A stretch of DNA of 64,000 nucleotides. Origin: an uncultured virus (IMG/VR IMGVR_UViG_3300042560_001054) (Duplodnaviria > Heunggongvirae > Uroviricota > Caudoviricetes). Positions 1-51,347 of this stretch are shown piece after piece (the stretch's first letter is position 1; every line of letters begins with the position of its first letter). Both the position numbers and the translations under genes were made by a program. The notes beneath the pieces are model-generated. The model was not told where the DNA came from. It worked only from the letters and a program-made list of their open reading frames with translations, and ran no database searches. The stretch lies in IMG/VR virus record IMGVR_UViG_3300042560_001054; one strand, written 5' to 3'.

Positions 1-409
1 ACTGCCTACCAAACTTGTCGAGCCGTATTTATACGACCAGACCTACGGCTTCCCTGCCAGATAGGTAGTTACTACCCAGTAGCCAGCCTGCTCAGGAAAT
101 ACGATTACTCTCTCTCTTATTATTACTTTAGGGATTAAACAGGGAATTAAATTGGGGGATTGCCAAAGATTGCCAAGTCCTGCCCATGACCACGCATGGT
201 GAAACTCCACCACCGCCACCGCCACCAAAGGTGATGAGGTGATGACCCTGTTCGTTCAGGCGTTCGGTCACTTAAAAGCAGGAAAGCGTTATCAAAACGT
301 TATCAAATACGGTATTACCTAATTCGCTATTTGATTGGCTATCCACTACCCTCAGACCACAAGGCAGTCACCCGATTGCCTACTTACACGAAACGGATAC
401 CCACTCCTG

Positions 410-1765
410 ATGATTGCTCTATTAGTAGAAACAGAAACAAATGAGGGCAAGGCACAAAGCCTTATTGCTCCTCTCAAAAATGAGGTGGTGTGTTACCACC
501 GCCTCTCAAATGGAAGTCGTGGTCGTGGTCAAGCTTGGAAACAAACTTGCCTAGATGAACTACCACTAGACATGGTGACCTGTATGCCAGTAGCCGTGCC
601 ACTTACTTACAAAGACATTGAGGGCTTGGCAGTCGGTCAGATTACAACCCTTGCCGTCAAAGCCATGACCGCCTTCGAACAAACCAGTCCTGTCGAGCCT
701 GTAGATACTCACCGAGCCGTAGTCGCTGACCTAACCCTTCGACTAATCGCAGGTGACATGACCCTCAACGCCTATGTCAAAGACGGTCGCCGTAACAGTC
801 CTGTAGTGCTGACACCACTAACCAAGCCTGTCGAGCCTGTTAGGGAAGTAAGCGCAGAGGCACATAAACAGCAGGAAGCACCAGTATTGGTCGGAGCAAG
901 CCCAGTAATTATGGAACTAGCAACTATTCCAACATTAGATTGGTCTAAGAAATACATAAACAGAAAAATAAATGGTCTTATCGAATACGCTATTTATGAC
1001 AACGCCATGACCAACAACGAGAACATACTAATCATGGGTCACGCAGGTAGCGGTAAAACTATGTCAGTCTTGGGATACGCAAGCACTCGTGGCTATCGCT
1101 ATTACAACGTGTCTAGTCACATTGGCTTAGAGCCAACCCAGTTATTCGGTTCATGGATACCAACCCCTGACGGACACTTCCGTTGGCAAGACGGTCCTGT
1201 AACAGACTTGGTAAGAAATGGTGGAGTGTTACTTCTAAATGAAGTGAACTTCATGCCCGAGCGTGTCACCACAATTCTGTTCGGCTTACTTGACGACCGC
1301 CGTGAGATACAAATTATGGAAAATGGTGGTGAGGTTATCAAGGCTCACAAAGACCTCTTGATTATCGCTGACATGAACCCCAACTACAGAGGCACTCGAC
1401 CTATGAACCAAGCTTGGGTAGATAGATTTCACCACAAGTTAGACTTCCCATACGACCACGCTATCGAAAGCAAACTAATCAAGAACAAGGCGTTGCTAGA
1501 AATGGCAAACAAACTTAGGGAGTTATCTAACAAGGGCGACCTTGATACTCCTATCTCAACTCGTGGTCTAGCCAACTTTATTAAGAACGCTACCAACCTA
1601 AACTTGGATTACGCCATGTCCTCTTATGTAAATGGCTTCCTTGATGAGGAGCGAGAAGCAGTCAAACTTGTATTAGATACATACAAGCCGAACATTGGTG
1701 TAGAACTTGGCATTACTGTTGAGGTAGCACCAACTCAGGTAGATGAGGTGGCAATAAATGGCTAA
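410..1765 (+). CDS. MoxR-family (CbbQ/NirQ/CobS-like) AAA+ ATPase
   Basis: Walker A GHAGSGKT; W-x-DGPV motif; Walker B variant LLLNEVN; MNPNYRGT; DRF arginine finger; ISTR. Start placed at ATG 410 rather than TTG 335. Confidence 0.88.
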   Translation: MIALLVETETNEGKAQSLIAPLKNEVVCYHRLSNGSRGRGQAWKQTCLDELPLDMVTCMPVAVPLTYKDIEGLAVGQITTLAVKAMTAFEQTSPVEPVDTHRAVVADLTLRLIAGDMTLNAYVKDGRRNSPVVLTPLTKPVEPVREVSAEAHKQQEAPVLVGASPVIMELATIPTLDWSKKYINRKINGLIEYAIYDNAMTNNENILIMGHAGSGKTMSVLGYASTRGYRYYNVSSHIGLEPTQLFGSWIPTPDGHFRWQDGPVTDLVRNGGVLLLNEVNFMPERVTTILFGLLDDRREIQIMENGGEVIKAHKDLLIIADMNPNYRGTRPMNQAWVDRFHHKLDFPYDHAIESKLIKNKALLEMANKLRELSNKGDLDTPISTRGLANFIKNATNLNLDYAMSSYVNGFLDEEREAVKLVLDTYKPNIGVELGITVEVAPTQVDEVAING

Positions 1766-3680
1766 GAAAATCCAACGAGAACTTACTGCTCAACTATCTT
1801 GGCAAGAAGTGGATACGGAGTGGAAAGAGTGGCTTCGTGAGAACAACCCAACTTATCGTGAGAAAAATTATCACGAACTTGATGAACTTGCTAAGTCCTC
1901 AGGTGTTGACATAGCAACCTTGCGTGAACAGAACCATGAGGAATACCAAGCCCTTCGTGAGCAATTCCAAGACACTCTCAAAGAAATTGCTGACGATAAA
2001 CAACAGAAACTAACTCTCAAAAATAACTTGTTAGATAGTTACTGCTCCGTGTATCAGAAAGCCGACCGTATCTTGACAGGTGGCTTGGACATTGAGGTTC
2101 GCATTGGAACACCAGCAGACGGAGTGGAAGCCCCTGCTTGGAATGACGGTAAAGTTATTTCTTTTAACGAAAGTATTATTAACGGCGTTGAGGAAAATAC
2201 TTTATTAGGATTACATGGGCTTAATTTCCATGAGGTCGCTCATCTCCTCTACTCACCACGTATCGGTTCAGAACTTGGAACGTGGGTCAAAGACAACAAC
2301 TATCAAACCAGTTTTAACATACTAGAGGACAACCGTGCCGAAACCTTCTTGGTAACTAAATACCCTGCGACTAGAAACTTCTTGTTAGCAACGCTTGGTG
2401 AATACATTATTAGAAGTAGTGGTGAAAGACTTGGCGATAGTTTTATCTTGTTAGCAGGTCGCAAGTATTTCTCATACGATTGTCGAACCAGTATTGGCAA
2501 GCTTTATGCTGAGAAGCATGGATTAGAACAAGCAAAGAAAGTTTATTACTTAATAAATAAATACCGCACTTTAGTATTTCCACGTGACTACGCTATCGCT
2601 AAAGAAATAATTACAGAGTTTAGTCCACTAATCCCTGAGGGAACAGATACACCAAACGGTTGTGGCACTCGTAGCCCATTAAAGAACGGTCGCCCTGAAA
2701 CAGGCAAGGAGCAAGAAGCATTAAACGTAACCGACCCTGAAACCGAACCCAACCTAAACCCTGACGACAAGAAGCACTCACACGGACACGGTGGCAACGA
2801 TGAAACAGACTTGCCTAAAGCAGAGCAAGCACAACGCCAGCAAGACGTCTTGGATAAATTGACTGATGAGGTCAACCGTGCCAAGAATAATAGTGATGTA
2901 ATAAATAAAATTAAAGAAACACAAAAGTCAATTAGCAAATCAAATGCTAATAAGACAATTCTTACAAAACAAAACGCTAACCTCAAAAGTCCTACGGGTA
3001 GCGATGTAGCAACGGTCAGAGCGTTCGCAACAGAACTAGAACGCTTACGCATTGAGGCAGACCCAGCATGGGGATTGGAGAAGCCAAGCGGTCGCCTCAA
3101 CAAGAAGCGAGCCATGAACGCAGACATAAACGACATTAACAAACTGTTCGACCGTTGGGAGCAGGGCAACGACAACCACGAGATTGAGGCAGTCTTGTTA
3201 TTAGATAAGTCAGGCTCTATGTATCGTGACATTGACGCAGTATCCCGAGCAGGTTGGGTTATCAAGCGAGCCGTTGAGAAAATACAAGGTCGTGTAACTA
3301 TCTTGTCATACAACCATAACTCCAAAGTCTTGTATGAAGGTGATGAGAAAGCCAAGTCTGATTACAAGTCACTTGACTGTAGCGGTGGAACTAACCCTCA
3401 CTTCGCATTGGTAGAAACCGAAAGAATTATGAAAGCAAGTATCAAGCCTACCAAGCTTGTTATTATGCTTACTGACGGTGGCTTCTATGAAGGTGACGAA
3501 ATAATCCAGCGCCTTAACGACATGGGAACAACTACTGTAATGGTATTTCTTGGTGAACCTTACATGCCAGTAGAGCAACTCTCTCATGGAGCGCAGGTGT
3601 TCAGGGCGATTGCTGACCCTAGAGGGCTTGTGAAAGTCGCCAAAGACATTGTTCGCAAACGCTTGCGTTCCTCTCGCTGA
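1758..3680 (+). CDS. vWA-domain protein with N-terminal HExxH metallopeptidase-like domain (CobT-like MoxR partner)
   Basis: HEVAH and NILED motifs; MIDAS DKSGS...GGT...LTDG; overlaps the ATPase stop. Confidence 0.85.
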   Translation: MAKKIQRELTAQLSWQEVDTEWKEWLRENNPTYREKNYHELDELAKSSGVDIATLREQNHEEYQALREQFQDTLKEIADDKQQKLTLKNNLLDSYCSVYQKADRILTGGLDIEVRIGTPADGVEAPAWNDGKVISFNESIINGVEENTLLGLHGLNFHEVAHLLYSPRIGSELGTWVKDNNYQTSFNILEDNRAETFLVTKYPATRNFLLATLGEYIIRSSGERLGDSFILLAGRKYFSYDCRTSIGKLYAEKHGLEQAKKVYYLINKYRTLVFPRDYAIAKEIITEFSPLIPEGTDTPNGCGTRSPLKNGRPETGKEQEALNVTDPETEPNLNPDDKKHSHGHGGNDETDLPKAEQAQRQQDVLDKLTDEVNRAKNNSDVINKIKETQKSISKSNANKTILTKQNANLKSPTGSDVATVRAFATELERLRIEADPAWGLEKPSGRLNKKRAMNADINDINKLFDRWEQGNDNHEIEAVLLLDKSGSMYRDIDAVSRAGWVIKRAVEKIQGRVTILSYNHNSKVLYEGDEKAKSDYKSLDCSGGTNPHFALVETERIMKASIKPTKLVIMLTDGGFYEGDEIIQRLNDMGTTTVMVFLGEPYMPVEQLSHGAQVFRAIADPRGLVKVAKDIVRKRLRSSR

Positions 3681-4804: not shown

Positions 4805-4906
4805 TAAGCCCCGCAGTTTAAGGACTACCGAGAGTAGCCAACTGCGGGGCTTATTATTTTTACAAAAGAGAAAGGGCCCTAGCTACCCACTAACTAGGGC
4901 CCCTTT
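4805..4906. terminator. Pair of hairpins at the convergence of the + and - transcription units
   Basis: TAAGCCCCGCAGTT...AACTGCGGGGCTTA followed by T-rich tract; second hairpin GGGCCCTAG...CTAGGGCCC. Confidence 0.75.
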
Positions 4907-4941: not shown

Positions 4942-5205
4942 CTATTTGTCAATTACTGAATTAGCGACTTCATCTCTAATAACTTTAAGCGAAGCAATTT
5001 TGTCAGGTCTAAATCCAGACCAATGTGTGTCTCCGCTTACAACTACTGGGGTGTATGAATACCCAAGAGACTTAACAAGTTTGTAAGCGTCCTCATCAGT
5101 AGTTATGTCCACCTCAGTAAAAGCAACGTTATCACGAGTAAGGTATTTCTTAGTCGCATTACAAGGCGGACAGTCAGGTTTTGTGTAAACAGTTACGTTA
5201 GTCAT
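4942..5205 (-). CDS. nrdH: NrdH-like glutaredoxin
   Basis: VYTKPDCPPC, TPVV, WSGFRPDKI; coupled to the RNR gene. Confidence 0.9.
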   Translation of the reverse strand: MTNVTVYTKPDCPPCNATKKYLTRDNVAFTEVDITTDEDAYKLVKSLGYSYTPVVVSGDTHWSGFRPDKIASLKVIRDEVANSVIDK

Positions 5206-7241
5206 TTGTTCTCCTTCTTGATGAAGCTTATCTCACAGGCGTCTGTAGTGCAATAAGCTTCTCCGATTGCATCGGCGGCCAGGCCAGCGTAGACGCCAGC
5301 AAAATCAATTGGCATTAACTTAAATACATACTCCTCATAATCCTGTTTTGTTATTTGAGTGTAGGGCATTTGTGGGTAAATAGTATTTCCCATAGGAAGG
5401 AAGGAGACTGTCTTCAGCTGACCATCAAACATGTGCAGCACAGTTCCTACATGCTCCCCTTCAGTCTCTTGATTGAACGAAACTGTAACTGAAACTGAGT
5501 TATCACTCCAATGGCGTTGAGCCATAGAAGCCAACGACATCTTCTCAAAGATAGTTACATCTTTTTCAGACCGTTTAGCCATAGACTCAACTGGAAAGAA
5601 CACGACAGAAGTAGTGGTTGGTGATTCACTTGCTGGCTCAACAGTATAGTTAGCCATAGTGAATAGGGGAAGCATAGGGTCTTCGTTACTAAACCTGATT
5701 GCTCTTAAGAAGTATTGACCGCCTGGAGTCCAATGAACCCCTGGAGATTCTCCAGCCAAGATTGACACAGTTCCCGAAGGCTTTACCGTTGTCATCTTAA
5801 TTGATTCACGGATACCAAGCCACTCTGAGTAAAGCTTGTCATACCCTTGAATAACTGAATAGCCTGTGTCCATCCATTCACGAAGAACAGGCACACCTTT
5901 TCTGTCAGCAAAGTTAGCAATACCAGAGATAGAAGTTCCGATACGTCGGTTACGTTGCATGATTGCGTTAGTTTCTTCCCAATGCGTTGGAAGAAGCGTA
6001 ACAGTCTTGGCGTATAGATAAGCAAACTTAAGAGTTCTCTTGAAATCATCAAGACTGTCATGTCTATTCAAATAGGTTTCAACAAGGGTGCAACACTCAA
6101 AAGACTCTAAAGATTGTTCAGCACAAGGATTGTAACCAGCGGCTCGCCAGTCTTTATTGTTAGGCGGGTCAATGAGACGGCCATACTTGCGAGTTACGTC
6201 CATCCAAATAACTCCAGGCTCTCCGTTTAATCTAATACCGTCAACAATTTTAGACAAATCGTCACCAACGCCAACCTCTACAGAGTTGTTAGACATCCAA
6301 GCCCAGCCTGGATTCTTAGGGTCGTATGAGTTACGCTCTGGAAATACCTCAGCGTTCTTAAGATTCAAGAAGTCCTCGTCGTCAACCTTACCAAGCAAGA
6401 GCTCAGCTGAGCGGCGTACGTTGCCTGATACAACGCAAACCCCTATTAAATTTCCTATATCAGCAATATCAATTCGGGTTAAAGTATTTCCTTCCCGATT
6501 ATTAAACAATTTATTGATAGACTCGTGAAGTCTCTTCAGCGGCCCCGGCCCAGCAGCTGTGCCTCCGAATGTTTTAATTGGTTCTCCAGCCAGTCTAATT
6601 TGCGAATAATCGAATTTAGGCATTGGTTGTTCAGGTTTCAAATATGAATTTAGTAATTGGCTTACTGAATCTACCCAACCCTCTCTGGTATCTGCAATCA
6701 CTGTCTCGGCATCTGAGGGTAGTGGCTTGTAAATAGCAAACTCTTTTTCTGCACCTTTGCTATCGAATCCCACTCCAACACCTAGCATGCTGGCTTCCAT
6801 TAAAAATGCAAATGGTTTTGCTGGGTTCAGCTTAGTCATCTCGCTAGTGGATACAAACGCACAGTTCTGCAAAGCTGCGCTGTTCTTTTGTTCGTTAACT
6901 ACTGGTGTGCCCATCATCCACAAACCTCGGCCTGGGGGTGTCCACTTAAAATTAAACAATCGGTCAAAGGCTTCTTTGGCAGAGGCTTGTGCCTTTGAAT
7001 CATTCCAAGGAAGTCGGCTAGACTTACAGTGGTCTTTCTGTAGGGAATACATACCGTTGACTATGCGCTCGCATACATCAACCCAAGTCTCTTTGGTTCC
7101 ATCTTCTTTTAATCTAGAATAAGTTCGAAGGAAAGTTACCTCTCCTACCGAGTTACCTGCCGCATCTTTATAACCCCAAGGTACTGGCTTTGCTCGGTAT
7201 CCGTCTACGAACTCGTTTGCTAGTTTAAAAGAAAGTGCCAT
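5202..7241 (-). CDS. nrdJ: Class II (adenosylcobalamin-dependent) ribonucleotide reductase
   Basis: PPGRGLW, NCAF, GNVRRSAE, NPCAEQ, TTVKPSGT, C-terminal CTTDAC; no beta subunit nearby. Confidence 0.92.
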   Translation of the reverse strand: MALSFKLANEFVDGYRAKPVPWGYKDAAGNSVGEVTFLRTYSRLKEDGTKETWVDVCERIVNGMYSLQKDHCKSSRLPWNDSKAQASAKEAFDRLFNFKWTPPGRGLWMMGTPVVNEQKNSAALQNCAFVSTSEMTKLNPAKPFAFLMEASMLGVGVGFDSKGAEKEFAIYKPLPSDAETVIADTREGWVDSVSQLLNSYLKPEQPMPKFDYSQIRLAGEPIKTFGGTAAGPGPLKRLHESINKLFNNREGNTLTRIDIADIGNLIGVCVVSGNVRRSAELLLGKVDDEDFLNLKNAEVFPERNSYDPKNPGWAWMSNNSVEVGVGDDLSKIVDGIRLNGEPGVIWMDVTRKYGRLIDPPNNKDWRAAGYNPCAEQSLESFECCTLVETYLNRHDSLDDFKRTLKFAYLYAKTVTLLPTHWEETNAIMQRNRRIGTSISGIANFADRKGVPVLREWMDTGYSVIQGYDKLYSEWLGIRESIKMTTVKPSGTVSILAGESPGVHWTPGGQYFLRAIRFSNEDPMLPLFTMANYTVEPASESPTTTSVVFFPVESMAKRSEKDVTIFEKMSLASMAQRHWSDNSVSVTVSFNQETEGEHVGTVLHMFDGQLKTVSFLPMGNTIYPQMPYTQITKQDYEEYVFKLMPIDFAGVYAGLAADAIGEAYCTTDACEISFIKKENK

Positions 7242-7341
7242 ATCAATTCCTATTCTCGTATGTGTGTTGTAAATACAAAACCCCTGTGTGTGAGTTAGGG
7301 GGAGTGTCTTAGTCTACCTTTTTGATAAAACTAAAACTGGT

Positions 7342-7653
7342 TCAGTTGGTTGTGCTTCTTCGTTCTTCTTCGTTTATAGCCATATCTAGGGCTAGCCAAT
7401 AGCCAGCTCCATCAATACGATTATCTTGCTTAGACTTGTACGACTCTCTAGCAAGTTTAACGCCGTCCATACAAAGTGCTACTTGTCTGTAGGTTACTTC
7501 GTACCCTAATATCGCTGACCATATCTTTGCAATCCTAGTGAAGTTATCTAGGGGGTGGTCGTACGCATTATTTCTATCTCCAGTAACTAATCTAGTTGCC
7601 TCATCTAGTATGTTTTTAGGACTACCCTGTTCCATGTTGTTTTGGTCGTTCAT
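7342..7653 (-). CDS. DUF6378-like phage protein (helical NTP-pyrophosphatase-like)
   Basis: ILDEA..LV.GDR...Y..P.DNF.RIA..WS, K.AR, DN..DGAGY pattern. Confidence 0.7.
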   Translation of the reverse strand: MNDQNNMEQGSPKNILDEATRLVTGDRNNAYDHPLDNFTRIAKIWSAILGYEVTYRQVALCMDGVKLARESYKSKQDNRIDGAGYWLALDMAINEEERRSTTN

Positions 7654-7658
7654 AGTTA

Positions 7659-9125
7659 CTACGAGTTCTCCTTGTCTGTGTCCGTAATTTGCTTAATAAT
7701 CTCGTTAGTTTTGTTTTCGTTTAATCCATCATTTGGTAATTCTCGAAGGGTTTGAGCCCTGTCTCCGAAGATAGCGGATAGTACTCCACCAGCTCCTTGA
7801 CGCTCTACCGTCATCCTAATAAACTCTCGTGAGTCGTCCAAATCCTTAATAGTTTTTAACATTTTAAAGAATCTGTCCATCTCTTGTCCGACGTTTGGGT
7901 CGGGGTATCCGCCGTTCAAATCTTCGCTAAACTTAGCGAAAGCCACTCTTTGGCCCTGCATTTCAAGTAAAGCGTTAATCAAAGACTTCAACTGTTCCTT
8001 GGTTTTAACCTCTACTGGTAGGTTGAACGCACAGGTGTTTTGTGGTTTAAAGGCAGGACAATTAGCGGCAACAAAACATGTATCGCATACCCGTAAACTA
8101 GTGCTATTGGAACGTAATGTGGTGACATCTTTAATGACCATATTGCCGTCATCGTCGGGTTCTAATACTCTCTGAACCTCTACTCCAAGCACGGGTAAAA
8201 CACCCATTTCCTCTGGTTTACGTTGTTCAAGTTTCCGCATGCCGACCCCCCTCGGAGTAACTTCAGCAGGGGGTGTTTCCGCATTTTGTTGGGGTACTAG
8301 TTCATCACTCATAGTTACTACGTTCTCTCCTAATCGACGATGCCAATCCTCGTATTGTTGGTAAGACCAAACAGCAAGCTTTGATACTTCTACTGCGTCG
8401 TCTGCCAGTATCTTATCGAAATCTAGCCCAGCCCGCTCGTATATGGACTTGTATCTAGGCCGTGACTGTTCTTTCATACGCTTAGGATAACGAAGCAGTT
8501 TTGTTCCATCCCAAACAATCGTTTCGCCTCGCATCATAGGGGATAGCCAAGAAAGGGTGCTAGCAGTCTCTACAGGCACTTGTCGCAGGTTATCTGGCTT
8601 GGCGCTAGCCAAAGCATGGAAAGTGGTTCCATGTATCTGGTTAAGTCGCCTAGTCTTTGCTGACAAACTGGTTTCGTTTTCAATTAAATTTCCAGGCAAG
8701 GCTACATTTAAATACCGAACTGCTAGGCTTTCTAAATCCTCGCCATGCCATACAGGCCAAAACTTTTCTTCTGGCACATCAGACCAACTGGTAACCCGCT
8801 GTTCGTCTATGAACAACTGGGTAAGCTGTGGGTGGTCTACCTCGGTAAACCCCTCAATCCTGTCTAAGTTCTCAGCTACGAACGCTTCGTAATCAGCTGC
8901 AAAGTCAGCTAACTCAGACTGAGTAAACTCTCGTTTAAATGGTATTCCAGCATTTAAAAAAAGCCTGACGTTGTCTGGAAAATAATTTTTTAGCTCGTAT
9001 TTTATGGTTTTAGGCATACCACGTCTTTGAAGGCCCCAGAAGCTGACTCCCATGCAGCTAGCTCCAGCTGCAGTCAGGATAGTTCTATTGCTAGGCACCT
9101 CAGCACCCAAATAAACTATGTTCAT
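7659..9125 (-). CDS. TGT/DpdA-like TIM-barrel protein with degenerate active-site motifs, fused to a Cys4 domain
   Basis: Motif order LFLNAG, EVD, PVWHG, VALPG, FHALA, ASTLSW mirrors the DSG...D...PVxH...GG...HxxG...DSxxW of phage TGT-like proteins; C-terminal CDTC-x5-C-x8-C. Confidence 0.5.
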   Translation of the reverse strand: MNIVYLGAEVPSNRTILTAAGASCMGVSFWGLQRRGMPKTIKYELKNYFPDNVRLFLNAGIPFKREFTQSELADFAADYEAFVAENLDRIEGFTEVDHPQLTQLFIDEQRVTSWSDVPEEKFWPVWHGEDLESLAVRYLNVALPGNLIENETSLSAKTRRLNQIHGTTFHALASAKPDNLRQVPVETASTLSWLSPMMRGETIVWDGTKLLRYPKRMKEQSRPRYKSIYERAGLDFDKILADDAVEVSKLAVWSYQQYEDWHRRLGENVVTMSDELVPQQNAETPPAEVTPRGVGMRKLEQRKPEEMGVLPVLGVEVQRVLEPDDDGNMVIKDVTTLRSNSTSLRVCDTCFVAANCPAFKPQNTCAFNLPVEVKTKEQLKSLINALLEMQGQRVAFAKFSEDLNGGYPDPNVGQEMDRFFKMLKTIKDLDDSREFIRMTVERQGAGGVLSAIFGDRAQTLRELPNDGLNENKTNEIIKQITDTDKENS

Positions 9126-9583
9126 ATACGTGGGTCCTCAGCAATAAGCTGAACTTGTCTATCTAGTTCGCCTTGGATGTCTTCCCAACTACGTCGTCCC
9201 TCACGTCCGTCTGGTCTAAATTTGTGACTTAAGTACTTAGGATGTAAAAACAGGAACACTCTAATCCCGTTTTCAATGCACAACTTAGCCAACTCTAAGT
9301 CAGCGGTAATTACTAAAAATATAGGGCCTTGAGCTTGAAGCTTTTGAACTTTAGCAAAGTCTTTTCTATCTGGTTCTACGCTTTCTAAACCAGTATTGTC
9401 TATGAAACCGTCTAAATCTGTAAACCTGTGTTCTTTGCACCATCTTGATGCTTCTTTTTCATCATCTACACCTAATACAACTTTGGTTCCGTTGTTTAAA
9501 GCTCTGTAAACAGAAATACCTTCAAAGATTGGTACTTTTGTATCGGTTCGTAAAACACCGTCGATAAAAAATATAATTGACAC
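9122..9583 (-). CDS. HAD-superfamily-like protein lacking the first Asp of motif I
   Basis: N-terminal IIFFIDGVLR versus canonical DxDGVL. Confidence 0.5.
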   Translation of the reverse strand: MSIIFFIDGVLRTDTKVPIFEGISVYRALNNGTKVVLGVDDEKEASRWCKEHRFTDLDGFIDNTGLESVEPDRKDFAKVQKLQAQGPIFLVITADLELAKLCIENGIRVFLFLHPKYLSHKFRPDGREGRRSWEDIQGELDRQVQLIAEDPRI

Positions 9584-9609
9584 CGTTTATGCTCCGAATT
9601 CTTTTTCGT

Positions 9610-10509
9610 TTAACTGCGGTTAATACGTTGTGAAGCTGCCCTACGAATAAGAACGCTAGCGTCTGCTAACTCTGAGCCGTATGTCTTTTCAGAAAAAGTT
9701 TTAAAATCCGATTCTTTTAATTCTTTTAGCTTCTGTAAGCCTTGAACAATACCAGACCGTTTACCAGACTGCCAACGGTAATTAAACCAATCACCGTAGC
9801 CTTTTCCAGATTCACTAAATGCGTGTTTTCTTCCAGAATGTATATCTTCATAAAGACCAACAGCTTGAGTCAACGCGTTTTCTCTTTCTCTCGAGGCGTT
9901 TACTCTAGCAGACTCATTAGAAGATTGTTCTAATTTAGACATAGCAGAACCATATCGCTTTAGGATTTCAATTGCCATGTCTTTGTCTCGTTGCGTTTTT
10001 TGTTCCCAAGAAGGGTCTACTACAATTTCCTCTGTATTTGGGGTAACAACCCATGCGTCGTCAGTTAACGAATAAGCGGCGTATGGCTTTAAATCTAAAA
10101 TATTTGGTTGAATGTTTACATAAAAAGTTAACTCAAAGACTCCCATGAAATTTGCGGTTTCTGGATAAATCTCTTCCCTAAAACCCTCGTTAAACATTTG
10201 GGAAATCTCTTTGTTGCTAAATCTAGCGTAGTCTTCGTTAGACTGACGGAATCCTATGAAGTCCACTCCAACAAGGCAGTCTAGGTCTGCAGGCTCTCTG
10301 TGGGCGGCCCATTGGTAAGAAACACCAGAACCTGCTAACCATACGTGCATCCATGACTCAGAGCCCGTAAAACGGGAATTAACATGGTTAAATAGTATTT
10401 GAAGGATAGAGTTTCTAACCTTGGGGATTACTTTCCCATTTCTAAACAATCTAGGGTCTAACCCCGCAGAAGGCCTGCTAAAAAACGAGGTCTCCGCAGG
10501 TTCTAGCAT
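9610..10509 (-). CDS. Pol-beta-superfamily nucleotidyltransferase
   Basis: LAGSGVSY followed by DLDCLV (GS...DxD); candidate third carboxylate in FELTFY. Confidence 0.72.
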   Translation of the reverse strand: MLEPAETSFFSRPSAGLDPRLFRNGKVIPKVRNSILQILFNHVNSRFTGSESWMHVWLAGSGVSYQWAAHREPADLDCLVGVDFIGFRQSNEDYARFSNKEISQMFNEGFREEIYPETANFMGVFELTFYVNIQPNILDLKPYAAYSLTDDAWVVTPNTEEIVVDPSWEQKTQRDKDMAIEILKRYGSAMSKLEQSSNESARVNASRERENALTQAVGLYEDIHSGRKHAFSESGKGYGDWFNYRWQSGKRSGIVQGLQKLKELKESDFKTFSEKTYGSELADASVLIRRAASQRINRS

Positions 10510-10511
10510 GT

Positions 10512-10745
10512 TTAATCGTCCTCGTCTTCGTCTGGGTCATCAAGGTGATAACGTTTAGCTCTCGGTTTAAAGTTTATATTATATTTAGTTGTTTCTTCTG
10601 GTCTATCTTTATTTATTCCAGAAACAAATCCGCAATCAGTGTGGGCTTCAACAAATCTTGAAGACAACAACCATAACGCAGTTTCATTTTCGTTTTGTTC
10701 CATTTGCATTGATGCACCACAAGTGCAAATCATCTCTACGAACAT
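10512..10745 (-). CDS. Hypothetical protein, CxC...HxxC, acidic tail
   Basis: ORF track; GGGG SD-like; TAAACT upstream. Confidence 0.6.
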   Translation of the reverse strand: MFVEMICTCGASMQMEQNENETALWLLSSRFVEAHTDCGFVSGINKDRPEETTKYNINFKPRAKRYHLDDPDEDEDD

Positions 10746-10778
10746 GGCGAACCCCCTGTCGTTACAGTTTACAAGATT

Positions 10779-11096
10779 TTAACTTTGACGTCTATCCAAA
10801 GCATCTCGCATTGAGGCCCCTACGCGCTGGCTATCCTCACTTCCAGTTTGCTTCAAATGTTGGGAAACAGCCCATGCCAGCTCTTGAGTGCGTATCGCAT
10901 CCCCAATCTCTTGACAGCCTTGCTTAATGTCTGTAACTACAGCCTGACGGTCTACAGCCAAGGGGGTAGCCAAGTCAGTTACGGCTTTCCACACTCCGCT
11001 GTCTAGCTTAATTAATAAAAACGCAGTAACTCCAGAACGTTGAATTACTTCTTGAGTATCGGTAGTAGGTGTTTCTACTTCTTGTTCTTCTGTCAC
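10779..11096 (-). CDS. Hypothetical protein
   Basis: ORF track; GTGA overlap with upstream gene. Confidence 0.65.
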   Translation of the reverse strand: MTEEQEVETPTTDTQEVIQRSGVTAFLLIKLDSGVWKAVTDLATPLAVDRQAVVTDIKQGCQEIGDAIRTQELAWAVSQHLKQTGSEDSQRVGASMRDALDRRQS

Positions 11097-11626
11097 TTGT
11101 ATAGTCCTTTCGACTCATGGTGCTTGGTCATATTAAACGATTTAACTGGACAAAAATCACACAGATATATCTTAGGGCCTGTTGGAGTCGAAGACAACCC
11201 AGCATCTGCTCTGTCTTTAGCAGTTCCTGGTTTTAATATTTTCTTCTCTGATTTGTAATCAGGGCACTGACCCTTAGGCCTGTTATGTTGTCCGTAACAA
11301 GCCATAGCGTCTTCTGCAAACTGCATCTTAGTTGCGTAAAATTGAGTTCCAAACGCGTCTAGTCCAGACGAGCCCCCACCTTGTATCTGTTCAATAACCT
11401 GTGGTCTCATCTTTTCAGACATCCAGATAACAGCTGGTACGTTGTACAAAACTCCTATATGGTCTGCACCGTGACGCTCTACTGTTATTTCTAAAAGCAC
11501 GTTACTTGGGTCTTGGTCTGCTGAAGGCAGCTCATCAATGGTCTTACAGGTACGACAAACTAATAACCTAAAATGGGGTTCTTGCTCAGCTCCACCGTCA
11601 TTTAAAGTAGACAGGTCTAAAACCAT
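11093..11626 (-). CDS. Cys/His-rich putative zinc-binding protein
   Basis: CRTC, C..H, C, CDFC; AGGAG SD. Confidence 0.7.
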   Translation of the reverse strand: MVLDLSTLNDGGAEQEPHFRLLVCRTCKTIDELPSADQDPSNVLLEITVERHGADHIGVLYNVPAVIWMSEKMRPQVIEQIQGGGSSGLDAFGTQFYATKMQFAEDAMACYGQHNRPKGQCPDYKSEKKILKPGTAKDRADAGLSSTPTGPKIYLCDFCPVKSFNMTKHHESKGLYK

Positions 11627-11672: not shown

Positions 11673-11876
11673 TTATTTCGTATTCTTTTTAGATTTCTTT
11701 AAAACTGAGTAATACCCACCAGCGTGTATTCTTAAATCGTTTGGATTAGTCTCACCAAGTTTATCTAACTTAGCTGCTGTTGCTGCTTTGTCATCCCCAA
11801 CAGTATGCTTGTACACATCTCGACCCTCAAACTCAGGTCTGTTTGGAATGTTTTGTAGTTTTTTAGGCGCTGGCAC
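11673..11876 (-). CDS. Hypothetical basic protein
   Basis: ORF track; operon context. Confidence 0.55.
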   Translation of the reverse strand: MPAPKKLQNIPNRPEFEGRDVYKHTVGDDKAATAAKLDKLGETNPNDLRIHAGGYYSVLKKSKKNTK

Positions 11877-12411
11877 GACGAGTACCCACGTCAGAACGGT
11901 CCCCAGTCACAACTGTTTTTGGACGGTCTTTGTAAGTTGCACCAGCTTTGTCTCCAGAAGCTGTGCAAGAAGGGCAGGTTACGTCTCCCTTTGTTGACTC
12001 CATTGATACAGAACTACCGCAGCCTGGGGTTTGACAAGCTAGTCTAGTTACACGTCGACTATCAACTACCCCTTTTTGAATAGCTTTTCCAATAGTTTTG
12101 CGATGCGCTTCTTTTTCTAAACCAGTGCTTCTTTCAAAACGATTTTGAGTTTTTTGCAGCTCTCCATGCTCACGTTCACTTAAGTTAGGCATAAATTTAT
12201 AGTCTGCAGCTTGTTTAGCTCTTAAATTATTTTCTACTTTAGAGCCTTTTTCTTCTTTTGCAATTGCTCTTAAATCTTGTTCAAATACGCTATCGGAAGC
12301 TTCTCGTTTTGCGTTTGCAACTTTATTTCCTTTAGACACCACAGCGCGTACTTCTTGTTCGCTTTGAGTAGGTAGTTGAATTCTTTTAAATTGTGCAGAT
12401 ACTGGTTTCAT
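11863..12411 (-). CDS. Hypothetical protein with C-terminal zinc ribbon
   Basis: CQTPGC...CPSC. Confidence 0.65.
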   Translation of the reverse strand: MKPVSAQFKRIQLPTQSEQEVRAVVSKGNKVANAKREASDSVFEQDLRAIAKEEKGSKVENNLRAKQAADYKFMPNLSEREHGELQKTQNRFERSTGLEKEAHRKTIGKAIQKGVVDSRRVTRLACQTPGCGSSVSMESTKGDVTCPSCTASGDKAGATYKDRPKTVVTGDRSDVGTRRASA

Positions 12412-12596
12412 TATTTTGCTTTAACTTTCTTTACTGATGGCATTGGGTCACGGTAATCATTTGCTACATCTTTGCCAGTGTTTACCCATGGGTCGTTCTT
12501 TGCAGCTTCGTTGGTTTCTTTTGCTGCAGAAACGGCTCTTCCTAGAGCAGCTAAACCTTCTTTGCTAGAATTAAATTGACTCTTACTTGGAATCAC
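12411..12596 (-). CDS. Hypothetical protein
   Basis: Translationally coupled on both sides. Confidence 0.6.
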   Translation of the reverse strand: MIPSKSQFNSSKEGLAALGRAVSAAKETNEAAKNDPWVNTGKDVANDYRDPMPSVKKVKAK

Positions 12597-12910
12597 TTTG
12601 TTGCTCCATCCTTACCTTCGCCAAATTCGACTGCACGACGAACTACGCTTTGATGCCTAGATGTAGACGAACTGTATTTAGTACTTGGTACGTGCCATCC
12701 AGCTTTCTCAGAATACCAAGCAATTGGAGTCTGGTACGAGTTAACTACGTACTCAGGGTTGTGCTCTTTAAACTTTGCTGCTTCATCTTCTGGCAAACGA
12801 CCAAGCCCCGTAGAAGAACTACCGCCTGAAAAGTTAGATGCTTTAAACGGTTTTCTATTAAGAATATGCTCTCCAGCATTTCTTTGATTGGCGCGGGCTG
12901 GCTTTGCCAT
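12593..12910 (-). CDS. Conserved phage hypothetical protein (SYxTPIA...YSxxTSRHQ type)
   Basis: YVVNSYQTPIAW and KYSSSTSRHQ motifs resemble a recurrent phage family. Confidence 0.65.
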   Translation of the reverse strand: MAKPARANQRNAGEHILNRKPFKASNFSGGSSSTGLGRLPEDEAAKFKEHNPEYVVNSYQTPIAWYSEKAGWHVPSTKYSSSTSRHQSVVRRAVEFGEGKDGATK

Positions 12911-12911
12911 A

Positions 12912-13118
12912 CTAAGCTCCTGGGTTTACTTTGTTAGGAGCCTCTGAATTAATAAAATCATAATTCATGTAAGGATTTAGACCTGCACGGTTTTGAACAA
13001 CAATCTGGTCGCCCATACCTGGGGCTACAGTTGTGTTTGGACGACGCTTGCGGTACTTACCGTCTGTTGCGCCTTCCAACATGTCTGCGTTCTGTGAACG
13101 TGAGTTATTGACTGTCAT
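12912..13118 (-). CDS. Hypothetical protein
   Basis: ORF track; AAGGT SD. Confidence 0.65.
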   Translation of the reverse strand: MTVNNSRSQNADMLEGATDGKYRKRRPNTTVAPGMGDQIVVQNRAGLNPYMNYDFINSEAPNKVNPGA

Positions 13119-13129
13119 GTTTACCTTTC

Positions 13130-13345
13130 TTAAGCCATTCTGTTAGCAACTGATTTAGCTGCTTTCTTACGGCCACATGGTTGACATAGGGTGGATGATA
13201 AAGATTGAACTGGGTTTAATAATGACCCGCAACTTCCGCATGGAACTGACCCATTGTAAACAGATAAGCTTTTACCGGTTACCGGGTCAAGCACGTAGGG
13301 CATGCCTTCACCTTGGTCATCTAAATACGTAATTGTATTTTCCAT
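13130..13345 (-). CDS. Small zinc-finger protein
   Basis: CGSC...CQPC; leaderless promoter upstream. Confidence 0.65.
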   Translation of the reverse strand: MENTITYLDDQGEGMPYVLDPVTGKSLSVYNGSVPCGSCGSLLNPVQSLSSTLCQPCGRKKAAKSVANRMA

Positions 13346-13354
13346 AATACTATT

Positions 13355-13717
13355 TTATACCTGTCCTAGGGTGTTTCGACTGGTGGACTCAGTAGTGTTT
13401 GGCTGCTGAGCATAGTCAGTTCTTTCGTAAGTCCTGCTAGTAAGCTCAACGATATCCTCAATACTGTATTCCGTGTTCTTATACCCAAATCTAGGTGGAA
13501 ACAGCTCTACCTGAGGTAGGGGTGGACGAACGTATTCTTGAATTTCTTCCCCAGTCATATTGGCTACCTCTAAAGACTGACTTACTAGTCTTTCTTGGTT
13601 ACTAGCAAATGGACCAATATAAGCTTGCGGAGGATATGCAGCTTTACCAGCGGCTATCCAAGGTCTGTTAGTAGACCATGGTCTTTCTCCGTAAACCCCA
13701 TCGGGTGTGTTTGGCAT
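13355..13717 (-). CDS. Hypothetical protein
   Basis: TAATG coupling at 13717. Confidence 0.65.
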   Translation of the reverse strand: MPNTPDGVYGERPWSTNRPWIAAGKAAYPPQAYIGPFASNQERLVSQSLEVANMTGEEIQEYVRPPLPQVELFPPRFGYKNTEYSIEDIVELTSRTYERTDYAQQPNTTESTSRNTLGQV

Positions 13718-14244
13718 TAATTCCACCCAGGCTTTAGTCTAGAAATTTGGTCAACGCGTCGTTGGTTTACTTCGTAAGGAGCATTGTGTTTTGTGTTTGC
13801 CTTACCGTCATTTACTAAATGAGGTGCAGGTGCTAACTTAGATACTGGTGCGTTTCTAGGTACAAGGTCTCCACGACGAGCAGCAGCCATTTGTCTTTTA
13901 ATTCCGCGGTCTCTGTCTAAACCAGAAGGATAATAATAATCTGATGGGTCAATACGTTCTCCGCGATGCACACCACGTTGATAGGAACGTTGTCCTACAC
14001 GTTGTTTCATCTTGTCTAATACGCGGTCAGAAGTTCCGTTAGCAAGACCTCTGTCATCACGTCGTGAACGTATGGTGCCTAGGTACCCATTTGGATACTC
14101 TGCGGAAGGTTCTCGACCCACACCCATACGTAAATAGTCGAGCTCAGAACGAGCAACAGGAACACCGCCGCCACCATAATTAGTGTAAGTTCCATAGAGT
14201 CCCGAAGCTCCGAGACTCTGTATATTCTGATGGGTACCTGGCAT
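13717..14244 (-). CDS. Hypothetical Arg/Gly-rich protein
   Basis: ORF track; TATTAT 6 nt before ATG. Confidence 0.7.
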   Translation of the reverse strand: MPGTHQNIQSLGASGLYGTYTNYGGGGVPVARSELDYLRMGVGREPSAEYPNGYLGTIRSRRDDRGLANGTSDRVLDKMKQRVGQRSYQRGVHRGERIDPSDYYYPSGLDRDRGIKRQMAAARRGDLVPRNAPVSKLAPAPHLVNDGKANTKHNAPYEVNQRRVDQISRLKPGWN

Positions 14245-14270: not shown

Positions 14271-15293
14271 TTACTTAGCGGTAAACTCTTTTCCTTCGTG
14301 AACCGTCCAACCATCTAAAATGTTAATTGGCTGCAATATAAAATGGCCGTCTTCCCTAATCCAGCCAATCATGACTCCTTGTTGCCAATCTTCCCAATGT
14401 TTTACTGGACGGCCTTGCTCACTAAGGCCACTGCCATAAGAAGGGACTGCTCCGTCAACACGACATAGGCACCCTGGACTTGCTGAAACGCTTCTGATGG
14501 GACCGTCTTGGTCATGTACAGTTTTATATTGCATCTCCTGTCTGTGTGCGTGTCCAAAAATTGTAGAAATGTGAGGGTTCTTATTTACATAAGCACTGGC
14601 TGTTGAGCCTCCAGAACGAACGCTGGTTCCGTGGATAGCTCTTAGGCTCTTATTTAACCAGTATTCACCTGCTGGGTATGCGCCAATATAATCGACCCTT
14701 AATTCATCTAATCTGAGTAAATATGGAATAGACATAACAGGCCAAGAATCTGGCTTTGGCATAGCTCGTTTAATGCCTTTAGCTGCCATAGCATTCATAG
14801 TAATAAACTTATTCATACGACAATCATGGTTGCCTTCAATTAAAACAATTTTTGCATTTGGGCAAGTCGCTCTTTGTTTAGCCAATAATTGATGCCCGTA
14901 ATCTATAGCTGGTTGTACTGTGTGTGCAAACATCTCTTCTTGTGCGTATTTTCCCATAGTCGGTAAATCTAAATAATCACCTAAATGAATGATTTCATCT
15001 ACGCCATATTTTGCTTCTAAATACGCAAGTAATTGGAAATGAACATCAATCGCTGCTTCATCATGGAATGGGTCTAAGGTTCCATCTTCGTATTTTCTAT
15101 ACCCAATTTGAGGGTCTGGAACAAACATAACTAATTTGTATGGCCCTTTATCAGATTTTTTATTTTTGTATACAGCTGGTTTTATAACTGTAGGGGAAGC
15201 CTGTTGAATAGGCGGCCACAACCACGCTGTATCAGGTACTTTAGGTTCTAAAAGATTAGTTAATTTTTCTATTAGCTCGTCGGACAAGTGCAT
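14271..15293 (-). CDS. Calcineurin-like metallophosphoesterase
   Basis: PDPQ, GDYLD, GNHD, HG, GHAH motifs. Confidence 0.85.
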   Translation of the reverse strand: MHLSDELIEKLTNLLEPKVPDTAWLWPPIQQASPTVIKPAVYKNKKSDKGPYKLVMFVPDPQIGYRKYEDGTLDPFHDEAAIDVHFQLLAYLEAKYGVDEIIHLGDYLDLPTMGKYAQEEMFAHTVQPAIDYGHQLLAKQRATCPNAKIVLIEGNHDCRMNKFITMNAMAAKGIKRAMPKPDSWPVMSIPYLLRLDELRVDYIGAYPAGEYWLNKSLRAIHGTSVRSGGSTASAYVNKNPHISTIFGHAHRQEMQYKTVHDQDGPIRSVSASPGCLCRVDGAVPSYGSGLSEQGRPVKHWEDWQQGVMIGWIREDGHFILQPINILDGWTVHEGKEFTAK

Positions 15294-47510: not shown

Positions 47511-48044
47511 TTATGCTTGGGCGTACGCCAAGAACTGGGTATCGTTAACCAGCTCATCTGGCATAACTTGAATTAGGTCCATAAGTATCAAAGTGTGACG
47601 CTCTGACACAACACCAGACTGTTGAGCTTTAATTGGTCGATAGACTTGTTCTTTCCATACAATTCTGTATTTATTAGTTAAATCAATTGTGTTTTTAATA
47701 ATTCCTCGTTGAGTAAAGAGGTCTGGGCTAGCTGTCTTTAAGTCATCAATGTTTAAAGTCATGTGCAAAGTATCAGCGTTATAGAAACCGCGCTCATTTT
47801 GCGCTCCAGTTCCTTGAGTGATAGAGGCTCTAACAACAGAAAGTAAATGTGGCCCAACCCAAACACGACCGCCTCCTAGAGGCTCTACATCGTAGATGGG
47901 GTCTCTCACACTTGCTGCTGAGTTAAATATCCACCATTGAGCTTTAGTTCCAGCTGGATTTGTTAAGTCGGCAGTAATGCCGTCACCAATAGAATCTAAT
48001 TCAAAATCTGAATCAAATCTACCACCTGGGGTATAGGCTCTCAT
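47511..48044 (-). CDS. Probable head-closure/neck protein
   Basis: DPIYD, RGFY..DTL, RIVWKEQVYRP; position in the morphogenesis module. Confidence 0.45.
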   Translation of the reverse strand: MRAYTPGGRFDSDFELDSIGDGITADLTNPAGTKAQWWIFNSAASVRDPIYDVEPLGGGRVWVGPHLLSVVRASITQGTGAQNERGFYNADTLHMTLNIDDLKTASPDLFTQRGIIKNTIDLTNKYRIVWKEQVYRPIKAQQSGVVSERHTLILMDLIQVMPDELVNDTQFLAYAQA

Positions 48045-49093
48045 TACTCTCCTTGATAAAAGTGCAAGTTAATCTTAAGTCGTGGGTCTGATGGATTTAA
48101 CTCCACAGCCTTTGTTCCTTGAATAATAGCTTCCTCTATTTTACCTAATTTGTACGCAGATAACGCCATAAGGTCGTGTGGAAGTGAGCCCCAAGAATCA
48201 GCATCGTTTAGATATGCCAATGGTTTTTCAACAATAGCCAAAGCTGTCTTAGCGTTGTTGTAGCAGGCTTCCCAATCATTTAGTTGGTAGTAGGCGTTTG
48301 CTAAATCTACCCAGGGTTCTCTAAATTCAGGAGCTTCCTTAGCCGCTTCCTTTAAATACATTATTGCATTTTCAGGGTCGCACTTTGCCATATATCTCCA
48401 AGATGCAGCTCGCTCTGGAGCCCACCTGGCCGTCTTAAGCTCAAGGTGACGTTTAAACTCTATTAATGCTTTCTCGTATAAACCGTGAAAATATAATTCT
48501 CTTGCGTAGTAGAAAGCGTTGCGGTCATCCTCTGGCGCTTCGTTTACAGAGAGCTCAAGCAAAGGAAAGTATTGACCTCTTGATTTATTAGGGTCAGGGT
48601 GATGATGTATTTCTAATTTAACCCACCCTTGAGTCTCCGCAATTCTGTCTGGAGTTATTACTTCATGTACTGGGTGCTTCCATCTATAACCGTGACGAGC
48701 ATGTATTTTGTCACCACCATACACAAGGCCTGGACTTCCGTCAGGATTCCAGCTCCATGTGTATTGGTATCTAGGTCGGGTCCATTTTTGGGTGTGGGCC
48801 GATTCTAACTCTTCTCTCCAACCTGGCTGGAGAACTTCATCCATATCTAAAGCAATGCAGTAATCTATATCGTCAGGTATTAAAGCAAGAGAAACATTCC
48901 TTGCGTCATCAAATCTCCAAGGTTTCACGCTAATTGTGTGGCACACAATTCCAAGTGATTTGGCTTTCTCTACGGTTTTATCTGTAGAACCCGTGTCAGC
49001 AATTAGTAAGTAGTCCGCGTCTTTTGCGGAATCAAACCAAGATTGAACAAAGTGCTCTTCATTTAAAGCAATGGTATAGACGGCTACCTTCAT
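48044..49093 (-). CDS. GT2 glycosyltransferase with C-terminal TPR repeats
   Basis: IALNEE, DTGSTD, F..ARN, LDMDE (DxD), HPVHE; helical TPR-like tail. Confidence 0.88.
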   Translation of the reverse strand: MKVAVYTIALNEEHFVQSWFDSAKDADYLLIADTGSTDKTVEKAKSLGIVCHTISVKPWRFDDARNVSLALIPDDIDYCIALDMDEVLQPGWREELESAHTQKWTRPRYQYTWSWNPDGSPGLVYGGDKIHARHGYRWKHPVHEVITPDRIAETQGWVKLEIHHHPDPNKSRGQYFPLLELSVNEAPEDDRNAFYYARELYFHGLYEKALIEFKRHLELKTARWAPERAASWRYMAKCDPENAIMYLKEAAKEAPEFREPWVDLANAYYQLNDWEACYNNAKTALAIVEKPLAYLNDADSWGSLPHDLMALSAYKLGKIEEAIIQGTKAVELNPSDPRLKINLHFYQGE

Positions 49094-49104
49094 TTGGTAC
49101 CTAA

Positions 49105-49227
49105 CTACTCGGCGTCAAGGGCTACATAATCGTAGCCGATAACCTCCCCAGTTGCCGCATCCGTGACTCTAAAAGTACGGATATTTGTTAGAGGGTCTAC
49201 GCCTAAATCTTCTTTATTTACTGTCAT
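49105..49227 (-). CDS. Small hypothetical protein (40 aa)
   Basis: ATGA overlap with the fibre stop; [19 protein letters not shown]... Confidence 0.5.
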
Positions 49228-50966: not shown

Positions 50967-50975
50967 TAAATCTCC

Positions 50976-51338: not shown

Positions 51339-51347
51339 AGTATTAGT

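Follow-up and report, generated by a model that had tools for sequence, protein, structure and literature searches.

The stretch of DNA considered here, called the window throughout, comprises 64,000 nucleotides from an uncultured virus of the Caudoviricetes (IMG/VR record IMGVR_UViG_3300042560_001054), and in its region 4,942-11,626 the list of open reading frames (ORFs) gives a tightly packed run of genes on the minus strand. Most of this run is taken up by a block that encodes three small proteins of 177, 105 and 77 amino acids (aa), a protein with the signature of a nucleotidyltransferase (NTase), a HAD-like protein and a protein with the fold of the TGT and DpdA enzymes, and these six genes form a conserved set in actinophages. 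The core of the block is the pair formed by the last two, a derivative of the long-form phage DpdA and a HAD protein resembling the phosphatase of Pnkp, both of which have lost the Asp that would carry the covalent intermediate. The genes of the block and the two parts of the largest protein are as follows:

11626..11093, minus strand: Cys-rich protein of 177 aa (CxxC ... C..H ... C ... CDFCP), which opens the conserved block
11096..10779, minus strand: protein of unknown function, 105 aa, syntenic in related loci
10745..10512, minus strand: Cys-containing peptide of 77 aa, with a conserved F.EM.C.C ... H..CG
10509..9610, minus strand: protein of 299 aa with a Pol-beta-type NTase signature and a conserved helical C-terminal half
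9583..9122, minus strand: capless HAD-fold protein of 153 aa (AlphaFold2, AF2, and VIA-align)
9125..7659, minus strand: TGT/DpdA-fold protein of 488 aa (AF2, VIA-align, hhalign, phrog_887)
8322..9125, minus strand: TGT/DpdA-type TIM barrel of the 488-aa protein, residues 1-268, with N58 and S189 and with D97 and H170 kept
7659..8321, minus strand: linker (~269-340) and Cys4/helical C-terminal domain (~341-488) of the 488-aa protein

The fold of the 488-aa protein, which an earlier note had read from the letters as a TGT-like barrel, is supported by structural modelling and comparison. An AF2 model built from 73 diverse family members has a predicted local distance difference test (pLDDT) score above 93 over residues 1-267; Foldseek places the Z. 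mobilis TGT at the top (E ~1e-5), and VIA-align gives the archaeosine TGT 1iq8_A with Z 17.1 (root-mean-square deviation, rmsd, 3.2 Å, 250 aligned residues) and the bacterial TGT with Z 16.7, so that residues 1-268 form a (beta/alpha)8 barrel of the TGT type. When the 84 ORFs of the window were compared with the PHROG families, the protein matched phrog_887, named ‘queuine tRNA-ribosyltransferase’, with E 5e-49 over residues 76-477, and each half matched it separately. Profile comparison by hhalign relates the protein to the DpdA of phage 9g (96.7%, E 4e-10), its barrel to gp021 of Bacillus phage BCD7 (99.9%), and the whole to the split pair of Bacteroides phage BS162P1 (98.3% for 00087 and 99.2% for 00088).

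General family libraries contribute little. The 488-aa protein found nothing in sequence searches of Pfam, NCBIfam or the Protein Data Bank (PDB), and PDB sequence searches with its family profile and with the 9g DpdA returned nothing meaningful. Among the 73 family members the Pfam TGT model matched none (0/73) and DUF6610 none, the matches obtained being scattered and at chance level; NCBIfam gave nothing for the NTase, the HAD-like and the TGT-like proteins, nor for three distant members of the family. PADLOC yielded no DpdA match for the window proteins, a result that is uninformative, as the 9g DpdA itself is recovered only at E 0.02.

In its overall build, a TGT-type barrel and a Cys4/helical domain in one protein, the 488-aa protein has the long-form DpdA architecture, the same as that of BCD7 gp021 (phrog_887) and of the BS162P1 00087/00088 pair. 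It also has in common with phage 9g DpdA1, with the DpdA of S. Montevideo and with the tRNA TGTs both the TIM barrel and the Asp and His of base recognition: in the hhalign alignments the base-recognition Asp (Asp130) falls on D97, and His181-Gly182 on H170-A171. It differs in the catalytic residues. The DSG motif of DpdA falls on L57-N58-A59-G60, which replaces the general acid/base Asp by Asn58, and the DSSSW motif falls on S189-T-L-S-W193, which replaces the nucleophile Asp by Ser189, whereas in BCD7, BS162P1 and 9g the DSG and the D-S-x-x-W are both intact. The register is identical from 9g DpdA, BCD7 gp021 and BS162P1_00087, and is anchored by the invariant Trp193; thus the readings NAG and STLSW given in the earlier note are borne out, and the catalytic Asp residues are still absent after alignment to the three DpdA profiles. 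In the S. Montevideo enzyme, according to the published study (PMC10164549), Asp95 is the general acid/base and Asp256 the nucleophile, the changes Asp95Ala and Asp256Ala each abolish guanine exchange, and three active-site Asp are termed invariant across TGT and DpdA; the general acid/base and the nucleophile, which that study presents as essential as well as invariant in the two families, are both missing from the barrel of the window.

These losses, taken in the earlier note as the mark of a pseudoenzyme in this phage, are real, but that of the nucleophile is not confined to it. The family is large: a profile search of 1.84 billion representatives (E ≤1e-3) recovered no fewer than 1,058 clusters at 50% identity, and at 90% there are 1,618 clusters or more. 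Across 136 full-length representatives the nucleophile column (189) holds S in 62, A in 20, T in 16 and G in 14, with Asp in none (0/136), and Asp is equally absent from the same column in 82 further loci (0/82). Column 58, the position of the DSG Asp, is D in 82 of the 136, Y in 18, E in 14, H in 9 and N in 5, and the window's own clade is the one that additionally lacks the Asp of DSG. The residues of base reading are widely kept (D97 in 108/136, H170 in 106/136; column 171 is G in 82 and A in 37), as are three acidic columns, E9 being E or D in 125 representatives, E95 being present in 116 and E/D201 in 131, and W193 and the Cys4 set are invariant or nearly so across the family.

The 153-aa protein presents a parallel case. 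Its AF2 model (44 sequences, pLDDT 90) has the Rossmann-like core of the HAD fold: VIA-align lists the 3′-phosphatase of T4 Pnkp, 5uj0_B, as the best match (Z 13.8, rmsd 2.4 Å, 113 aligned residues), followed by Pnkp1 (Z 13.1), with the HAD superfamily in all 50 rows listed, and Foldseek returns the same folds with weak E-values of 4e-3 to 4e-2. No family model of Pfam, PHROG or NCBIfam matches it, and a PDB profile search gave nothing meaningful. Motif I reads F6-I7-D8-G9-V-L at the end of strand 1. On the aligned ranges (model 1..114, T4 Pnkp 160..298), F6 would match Asp165, the nucleophile of T4 Pnkp; this placement derives from the pattern hhhh-x-D-G-[VI]-L together with the range offset, and not from a residue-level superposition. 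Among 44 relatives position 6 is T in 13, F in 11, V in 8, Y in 4, S in 4, A in 3 and P in 1, and Asp in none (0/44), so that the HAD-like fold with Phe at the nucleophile position, FIDGVL, first noticed from the sequence, is borne out for the window, and the lack of Asp at that position extends to the relatives. Position 8, in contrast to position 6, is D or E in 41 of the 44, and D95 (D in 37/44) lies at the end of strand 88-93, where its equivalence to motif IV is suggested by strand position only. The protein shares with T4 Pnkp the capless HAD fold and apparently the Asp at +2 of motif I, whereas T4 Pnkp has a kinase domain and a nucleophile and the 153-aa protein has neither, carrying instead Phe at the inferred nucleophile position; it bears in addition an extra conserved C-terminal segment (F/W-R-P-D ... 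W133 ... Q143).

Both proteins are maintained and not decaying, because the ratio of non-synonymous to synonymous substitution (dN/dS) lies between 0.03 and 0.10, resembling that of the neighbouring ribonucleotide reductase (RNR). Between the window and two close relatives it is 0.054 and 0.070 for the TGT-like gene and 0.024 and 0.053 for the RNR, while against close relatives the HAD-like gene gives 0.034-0.097 and the NTase 0.026-0.064; the TGT-like, HAD-like and NTase genes are thus all under strong purifying selection. Intein/LAGLIDADG insertions occur in 4 of 150 listed representatives of the TGT-like family (P0163, P0214, P0216 and P0221; 814-865 aa), and the three insertion junctions that were read lie at a conserved G-[D/E]|T motif (E201|T202 in the window) and just before the second and the fourth Cys of the Cys4 set, a choice of sites that fits a protein with conserved and needed positions. 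An N-terminal HNH nuclease domain is present in two of the same 150 (P0128 and P0133), either as a true fusion or as a merged gene call, and would be a weak pointer to DNA. Fusions to a HAD or NTase domain were absent among 270 family proteins, and a single-protein locus search with P0217 gave no match.

With respect to the C-terminal part, the AF2 model falls below pLDDT 50 at residues 270-297 and recovers to 75-89 at about 350-430. Here the earlier note had described a fused Cys4 domain, and the four residues concerned, C347, C350, C356 and C365, are each kept in 134-135 of the 136 representatives. Homologues of the domain are the C-terminus of BCD7 gp021 (tblastn E 6e-6) and BS162P1_00088 (hhalign 99.2%); searched alone, the C-terminal half has phrog_887 as its sole match (E 6e-35), and up to E 0.01 it meets no family of terminases. 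Since it sits in the DpdA settings of BCD7 and BS162P1, the domain belongs to DpdA biology. The spacing of the four Cys is C347-x2-C350-x5-C356-x8-C365, and the C-x2-C-x5-C arrangement is also known from the [4Fe-4S] sites of glycosylases of the EndoIII/MutY type and of WhiB proteins; the ligand could be either Zn or a Fe-S cluster.

A canonical DpdA also needs a supply of its base. Models of QueC, FolE and QueD found nothing in five records (four relatives that are 97-100% complete, and BRock), with positive controls and with QueE not searched, and among the PHROG names of the 84 window ORFs there is no FolE or Que, in agreement with the first reading of the window as lacking folE, queD, queE and queC. 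The contrast with BCD7 is direct: there gp021, of 757 aa, lies beside FolE, QueC, QueE and QueD, none of which is found by PHROG name in the window. In the flanks displayed around BCD7 gp021 and around the BS162P1 pair, for their part, there is no annotated hydrolase or HAD gene (by annotation, with no HAD-profile search), and the NTase of BCD7, gp015, is unrelated to that of the window.

The association of these genes was followed in two sets of loci, a close set of 80 IMG/VR loci at 55-100% identity to the window and a distant set of 80 loci at 33-48% identity to another member of the family; every locus examined has its ORFs intact. In the close loci the order 177-aa, 105-aa, 77-aa, NTase, HAD-like, TGT-like, RNR is kept wherever the flank suffices, and the NTase is present in 72 of the 80, the remaining eight having less than 1.9 kb upstream. 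Of the 80 distant loci, 78 have a HAD-like ORF upstream in the same orientation and 65 have the NTase; of the two without a HAD-like ORF, one has 142 bases upstream and the other, G010, carries a 177-aa/NTase/HAD block about 8 kb away. Ten records have no adjacent NTase, and only G010 has one elsewhere, while six of the other nine are 100% complete. Among cultured phages, the 488-aa protein has its nearest relatives in the BRock group of Streptomyces phages (33-34% identity over its full length), and BRock and GiJojo keep the 177-aa gene, the NTase (33% to BRock gp39, E 2e-57) and the HAD-like gene (25%, E 9e-17), with an extra gene ahead of the TGT-like one. In other words, what stays constant is the pairing of the HAD-like with the TGT-like protein, to which the NTase is a common but not an indispensable addition: the co-occurrence on which the reading in the earlier note depended extends for the pair as far as BRock, but fails for the NTase in six complete genomes.

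Of the remaining members, the NTase was described from the start as a Pol-beta protein with an intact GS...DxD, and this motif is indeed invariant in 40 of 40 aligned relatives (G60-S61, a 13-residue gap, D75-L76-D77), with E126, conserved in at least 90%, as the third carboxylate. The combination of hG[GS] ... DxD with a third carboxylate is the pattern of the Pol-beta-like nucleotidyltransferase superfamily. Beyond the motif there are leads only: neighbours of the protein in the Atlas are named nucleotidyltransferase or have PF01909 in 12% of their members, and DUF6932 was matched below its cut-off by 12 of 40 members (best E 0.015), while no Pfam family lay above cut-off and the PDB profile searches were empty. 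The 177-aa protein, 36% identical to BRock gp42 (tblastn) and found by its profile in an upstream same-strand ORF in 77 of the 80 distant loci, belongs to the block; it has what look like two metal-binding pairs, and may count as a fourth member of the core. The 105-aa profile matches 63 of the 80 distant loci, and neither the 177-aa nor the 105-aa protein matches a Pfam or PHROG family. The 77-aa peptide is present in most close and middle-distance loci; it was not detected in the 80 distant ones, which is a weak test for so short a peptide. The gene that follows the TGT-like one was rightly recognized as DUF6378 (PF19905; 78.4 bits against a cut-off of 27.1, E 4.9e-22), but it has no place in the module: it occurs in 21 of the 80 close loci, in each of which the TGT-like protein is 78% identical or more, and is absent from BRock and GiJojo, and is therefore a lineage-specific passenger and not a core part.

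Taken together, the reading that we tentatively prefer, and which we hold as a real possibility a little short of probable, is that of a DpdA derivative that no longer performs the canonical exchange and which probably binds nucleic acid together with its HAD-like partner. The barrel would be unable to run the double-displacement guanine exchange of DpdA and TGT, and the phage would give no 7-deazaguanine; it would act instead as a non-exchanging binder or reader of nucleic acid, probably DNA, still gripping a flipped-out guanine-like base. The persistence of the residues that read the base, and of a C-terminal domain of the DpdA type, suggests that it probably still engages nucleic acid and a guanine-like base. 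The HAD-like partner would hold a phosphate-bearing end or a nucleotide without hydrolysis, and the NTase, where present, would be the one member of the block that is a canonical enzyme, acting on the ligand that the pair binds. Since the block is placed between the replication genes and the RNR, it may take part in the metabolism of phage DNA or of nucleotides while the phage replicates. A precedent for a TGT fold that serves as a binding partner without catalytic residues exists in QTRT2, the non-catalytic subunit of the eukaryotic TGT. QTRT2, however, pairs with an active TGT paralogue, and no active paralogue was found here (no comparison was run).

Several points weigh against this interpretation. 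The target could be either DNA or tRNA, and the binding, the ligand and the complex are putative; the residue equivalences come from profile alignments and range offsets and not from superposed coordinates; and the NTase fold is suggested by a sequence motif and weak leads. The relatives constitute one broad group of about 85-116 kb with a shared gene order, and because of this shared descent the co-occurrence may in part reflect inheritance and not joint function. Residue 58, moreover, is mostly ionisable and E9, E95 and E201 are conserved, which would make non-covalent catalysis, or catalysis by alternative residues, possible at least in the clades with D58, and since D8 and D95 are kept, metal or phosphate chemistry may survive in the HAD-like protein. 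On the other side, the 4-base overlap in the window between the ATG of the 488-aa gene and the stop of the 153-aa gene, as an instance of translational coupling, counts for the two being read jointly.

The main rival is an active but non-canonical modification, in which the barrel would exchange, excise or install a DNA base without a covalent Asp, by direct displacement through residue 58 or through E9, E95 or E201, or with a residue contributed by the HAD-like partner, while the NTase would nucleotidylate the group or the target. The conservation of D97, of H170 and of several acidic residues agrees with this, as do the strong purifying selection, the occurrence of D, E, H or Y at residue 58 in 123 of the 136 representatives, the intact NTase adjacent in 65 of the 80 distant loci, and the inteins, whose positions at G-[D/E]|T and in the Cys4 set mark critical sites. 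However, the window has Asn58 as well as Ser189, and Asn58 counts against such an activity for this clade; the nucleophile column, which may hold S, A, T or G, hence offers no replacement catalytic residue; the HAD/TGT-like pair lives without the NTase in six complete genomes; no donor-base pathway was found (QueC, FolE, QueD); and there is no precedent in the literature searched. We regard an active modification as unlikely. A bolder combination of the same elements, which we consider distinctly doubtful, would make the nucleophile-less barrel and HAD-like protein, with the NTase and the Cys-rich proteins, a composite machine with an unknown chemistry on phage DNA, either adding or taking off a group other than a deazaguanine through a nucleotidylated intermediate or acting as a base-flipping ‘reader’ by which phage DNA would be marked or protected against actinobacterial defences; if true, the label ‘DpdA’ would conceal a phage DNA-handling system of a new class.

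If the target were instead tRNA, the barrel would sit on the anticodon loop and the HAD-like protein on a broken or phosphorylated RNA end, and the pair, with the NTase, would shield or handle tRNAs under attack by host anticodon nucleases. The nearest structures to the HAD-like protein are in fact polynucleotide 3′-phosphatases of RNA and DNA repair (T4 Pnkp, Z 13.8, and the Pnkp1 of Pnkp1/Rnl/Hen1, Z 13.1), and the barrel is as similar to the tRNA TGTs as can be measured (Z 16.7-17.1). Yet its closest sequence relatives are the DNA-acting phage DpdAs, Pfam TGT recognizes none of the 73 members, a phosphatase without its nucleophile cannot heal ends, and there is no RNA ligase among the PHROG matches of the window, all of which makes this explanation improbable.

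A role in packaging or in structural DNA recognition, similar to that of a small terminase, could be imagined from the existence of the C-terminal domain as a separate gene (BS162P1_00088), but the C-terminal half matches phrog_887 and not, at E up to 0.01, a terminase family; the same domain is found in BCD7 gp021 within the FolE/QueC/QueE/QueD cluster and adjoins the barrel gene in BS162P1, and the gene of the window lies between replication genes and the RNR and not near the head genes, so that we consider such a role quite improbable. That the protein is a working DpdA, inserting a host-made preQ0 or another 7-deazaguanine, is what the name of phrog_887 and the similar GenBank names of the BRock and GiJojo homologues would imply, together with the listing of BRock as a singleton DpdA in Supplementary Data 1 (PMC6884629); but both catalytic Asp are gone here and the nucleophile throughout the family, the equivalent Ala mutants of S. 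Montevideo DpdA are dead (PMC10164549), and QueC, FolE and QueD were not found in the records of five relatives, which leaves it very improbable indeed. Finally, the view of the two ‘dead’ genes as decaying relics kept by linkage, for which there is the loss of catalytic residues in two adjacent genes, is hardly credible against a dN/dS of 0.03-0.10 like that of the RNR and a family in which W193 and Cys4 are invariant, which numbers no fewer than 1,058 clusters at 50% identity and whose ORFs are intact in the examined loci, and is for practical purposes refuted by these data on selection and conservation.

With regard to what was already described, the BRock homologue appears in Supplementary Data 1 of Hutinet et al. 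(2019) as a DpdA without the other genes of the pathway, and the text of that work considers that singleton DpdAs may have diverged in function (PMC6884629); neither BRock nor BCD7 is named in the supplement of PMC10516641. In the literature searched, which did not cover the bioRxiv supplements, there was no report of the loss of the catalytic Asp, of the HAD-like partner or of the gene block. The assertion that no system of this composition had been described must therefore be divided: the protein family was already catalogued, its BRock member as a DpdA, whereas its disabled state and its partners appear to be new within that literature.

This has a practical consequence. DpdA has been proposed as a signature of 7-deazaguanine DNA, as stated in a preprint (bioRxiv 10.1101/2023.04.13.536721), and since this family lacks the needed residues and the base supply, surveys that count it as DpdA would overestimate the number of modified phages; the labels of queuine tRNA-ribosyltransferase or DpdA that it bears in databases and in the published catalogue are misleading. 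At a more general level, neighbouring proteins that are inherited together and have each lost nothing but the covalent nucleophile, while staying under strong selection, are seldom met, and this pair could serve as a model of how pseudoenzymes gain binding or catalytic roles. The same block is carried by cultured Streptomyces phages (BRock, GiJojo and their relatives), and so can be tested in the laboratory.

Downstream of the block the gene run continues on the same strand with the following features:

7653..7342, minus strand: DUF6378 protein of 103 aa (Pfam)
7241..5202, minus strand: class II (B12-dependent) RNR (Pfam, PHROG), downstream neighbour of the block
5205..4942, minus strand: NrdH/glutaredoxin-like protein (phrog_22 thioredoxin domain, E 1.2e-21)
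4905..4871, minus strand: terminator-like hairpin of 15 pairs (7 GC) with a T-rich tail, after nrdH

The position of the gene set upstream of an RNR was correctly seen, the enzyme being of class II by Pfam (RNR_Alpha 2.8e-28, RNR-II_ins_dom 1.2e-10) and by phrog_367 (1e-138). As for co-transcription, which had been affirmed, the shared strand and the short distances (2, 26, -4, 5 and 100 bases between the successive 77-aa, NTase, HAD-like, TGT-like, DUF6378 and RNR genes) make it plausible. The sole strong terminator-like site of the run is that at 4905-4871, which is probably the end of the transcription unit. Inside the block there are 9 promoter-like sites against 11.4 expected by shuffling and 5 terminator-like sites against 6.6, counts that do not exceed expectation and hence give no information on promoters within it. 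Four metatranscriptome studies contain short contigs nearly identical to the window; between them these overlap each gene of the block in part, and span both the HAD/TGT-like overlap and the junction between the 77-aa and NTase genes; they record presence in RNA libraries only, a contig being no proof of a transcript, their uncovered parts carry no meaning and such libraries can contain DNA, so that they are compatible with expression as weak evidence. One marine-labelled metatranscriptome contig (run X3) joins position 4965 to 5228, skipping 262 bases, and represents a variant without most of the nrdH-like gene.

The PHROG matches describe the phage as of the myovirus type, with tail sheath, baseplate, DNA polymerase, primase, DnaB-like helicase, recombinase, resolvases and a WhiB-like regulator. 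Because of its relatives in the BRock group of Streptomyces phages and of the WhiB-like gene, the evidence points to an actinobacterial host for this lake-type phage. A profile scan of bacterial genomes gave one weak partial match, in a metagenome-assembled genome of Sporichthya (36% over 55 residues), which is too slight for a host to be named or for an absence of the family from bacteria to be claimed.

Other parts of the window contain genes worth recording. Facing the block, on the plus strand at 335-3680, are two genes for a 476-aa AAA-type ATPase (phrog_249 ‘porphyrin biosynthesis’, E 6e-46) and a 640-aa protein without a PHROG match, which may be a CobS/CobT-like pair, of interest near a B12-dependent RNR. 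Between the recombination genes and the block lie a metallophosphoesterase gene (14271-15293; phrog_20266, E 2e-95) and then, at 11673-14244, eight small ORFs of 61-182 aa, one of which matches the families of unknown function phrog_32689 (E 2.6e-11) and phrog_5643 (E 2.3e-6), the other seven matching none. Among the tail-fibre genes, at 48044-53731, there are a glycosyltransferase (phrog_13126, E 2e-117) and a Nol-like carbamoyltransferase (phrog_1601, E 8e-128), and the GC fraction at 52001-54000 is 0.33 against about 0.42 elsewhere in the window.

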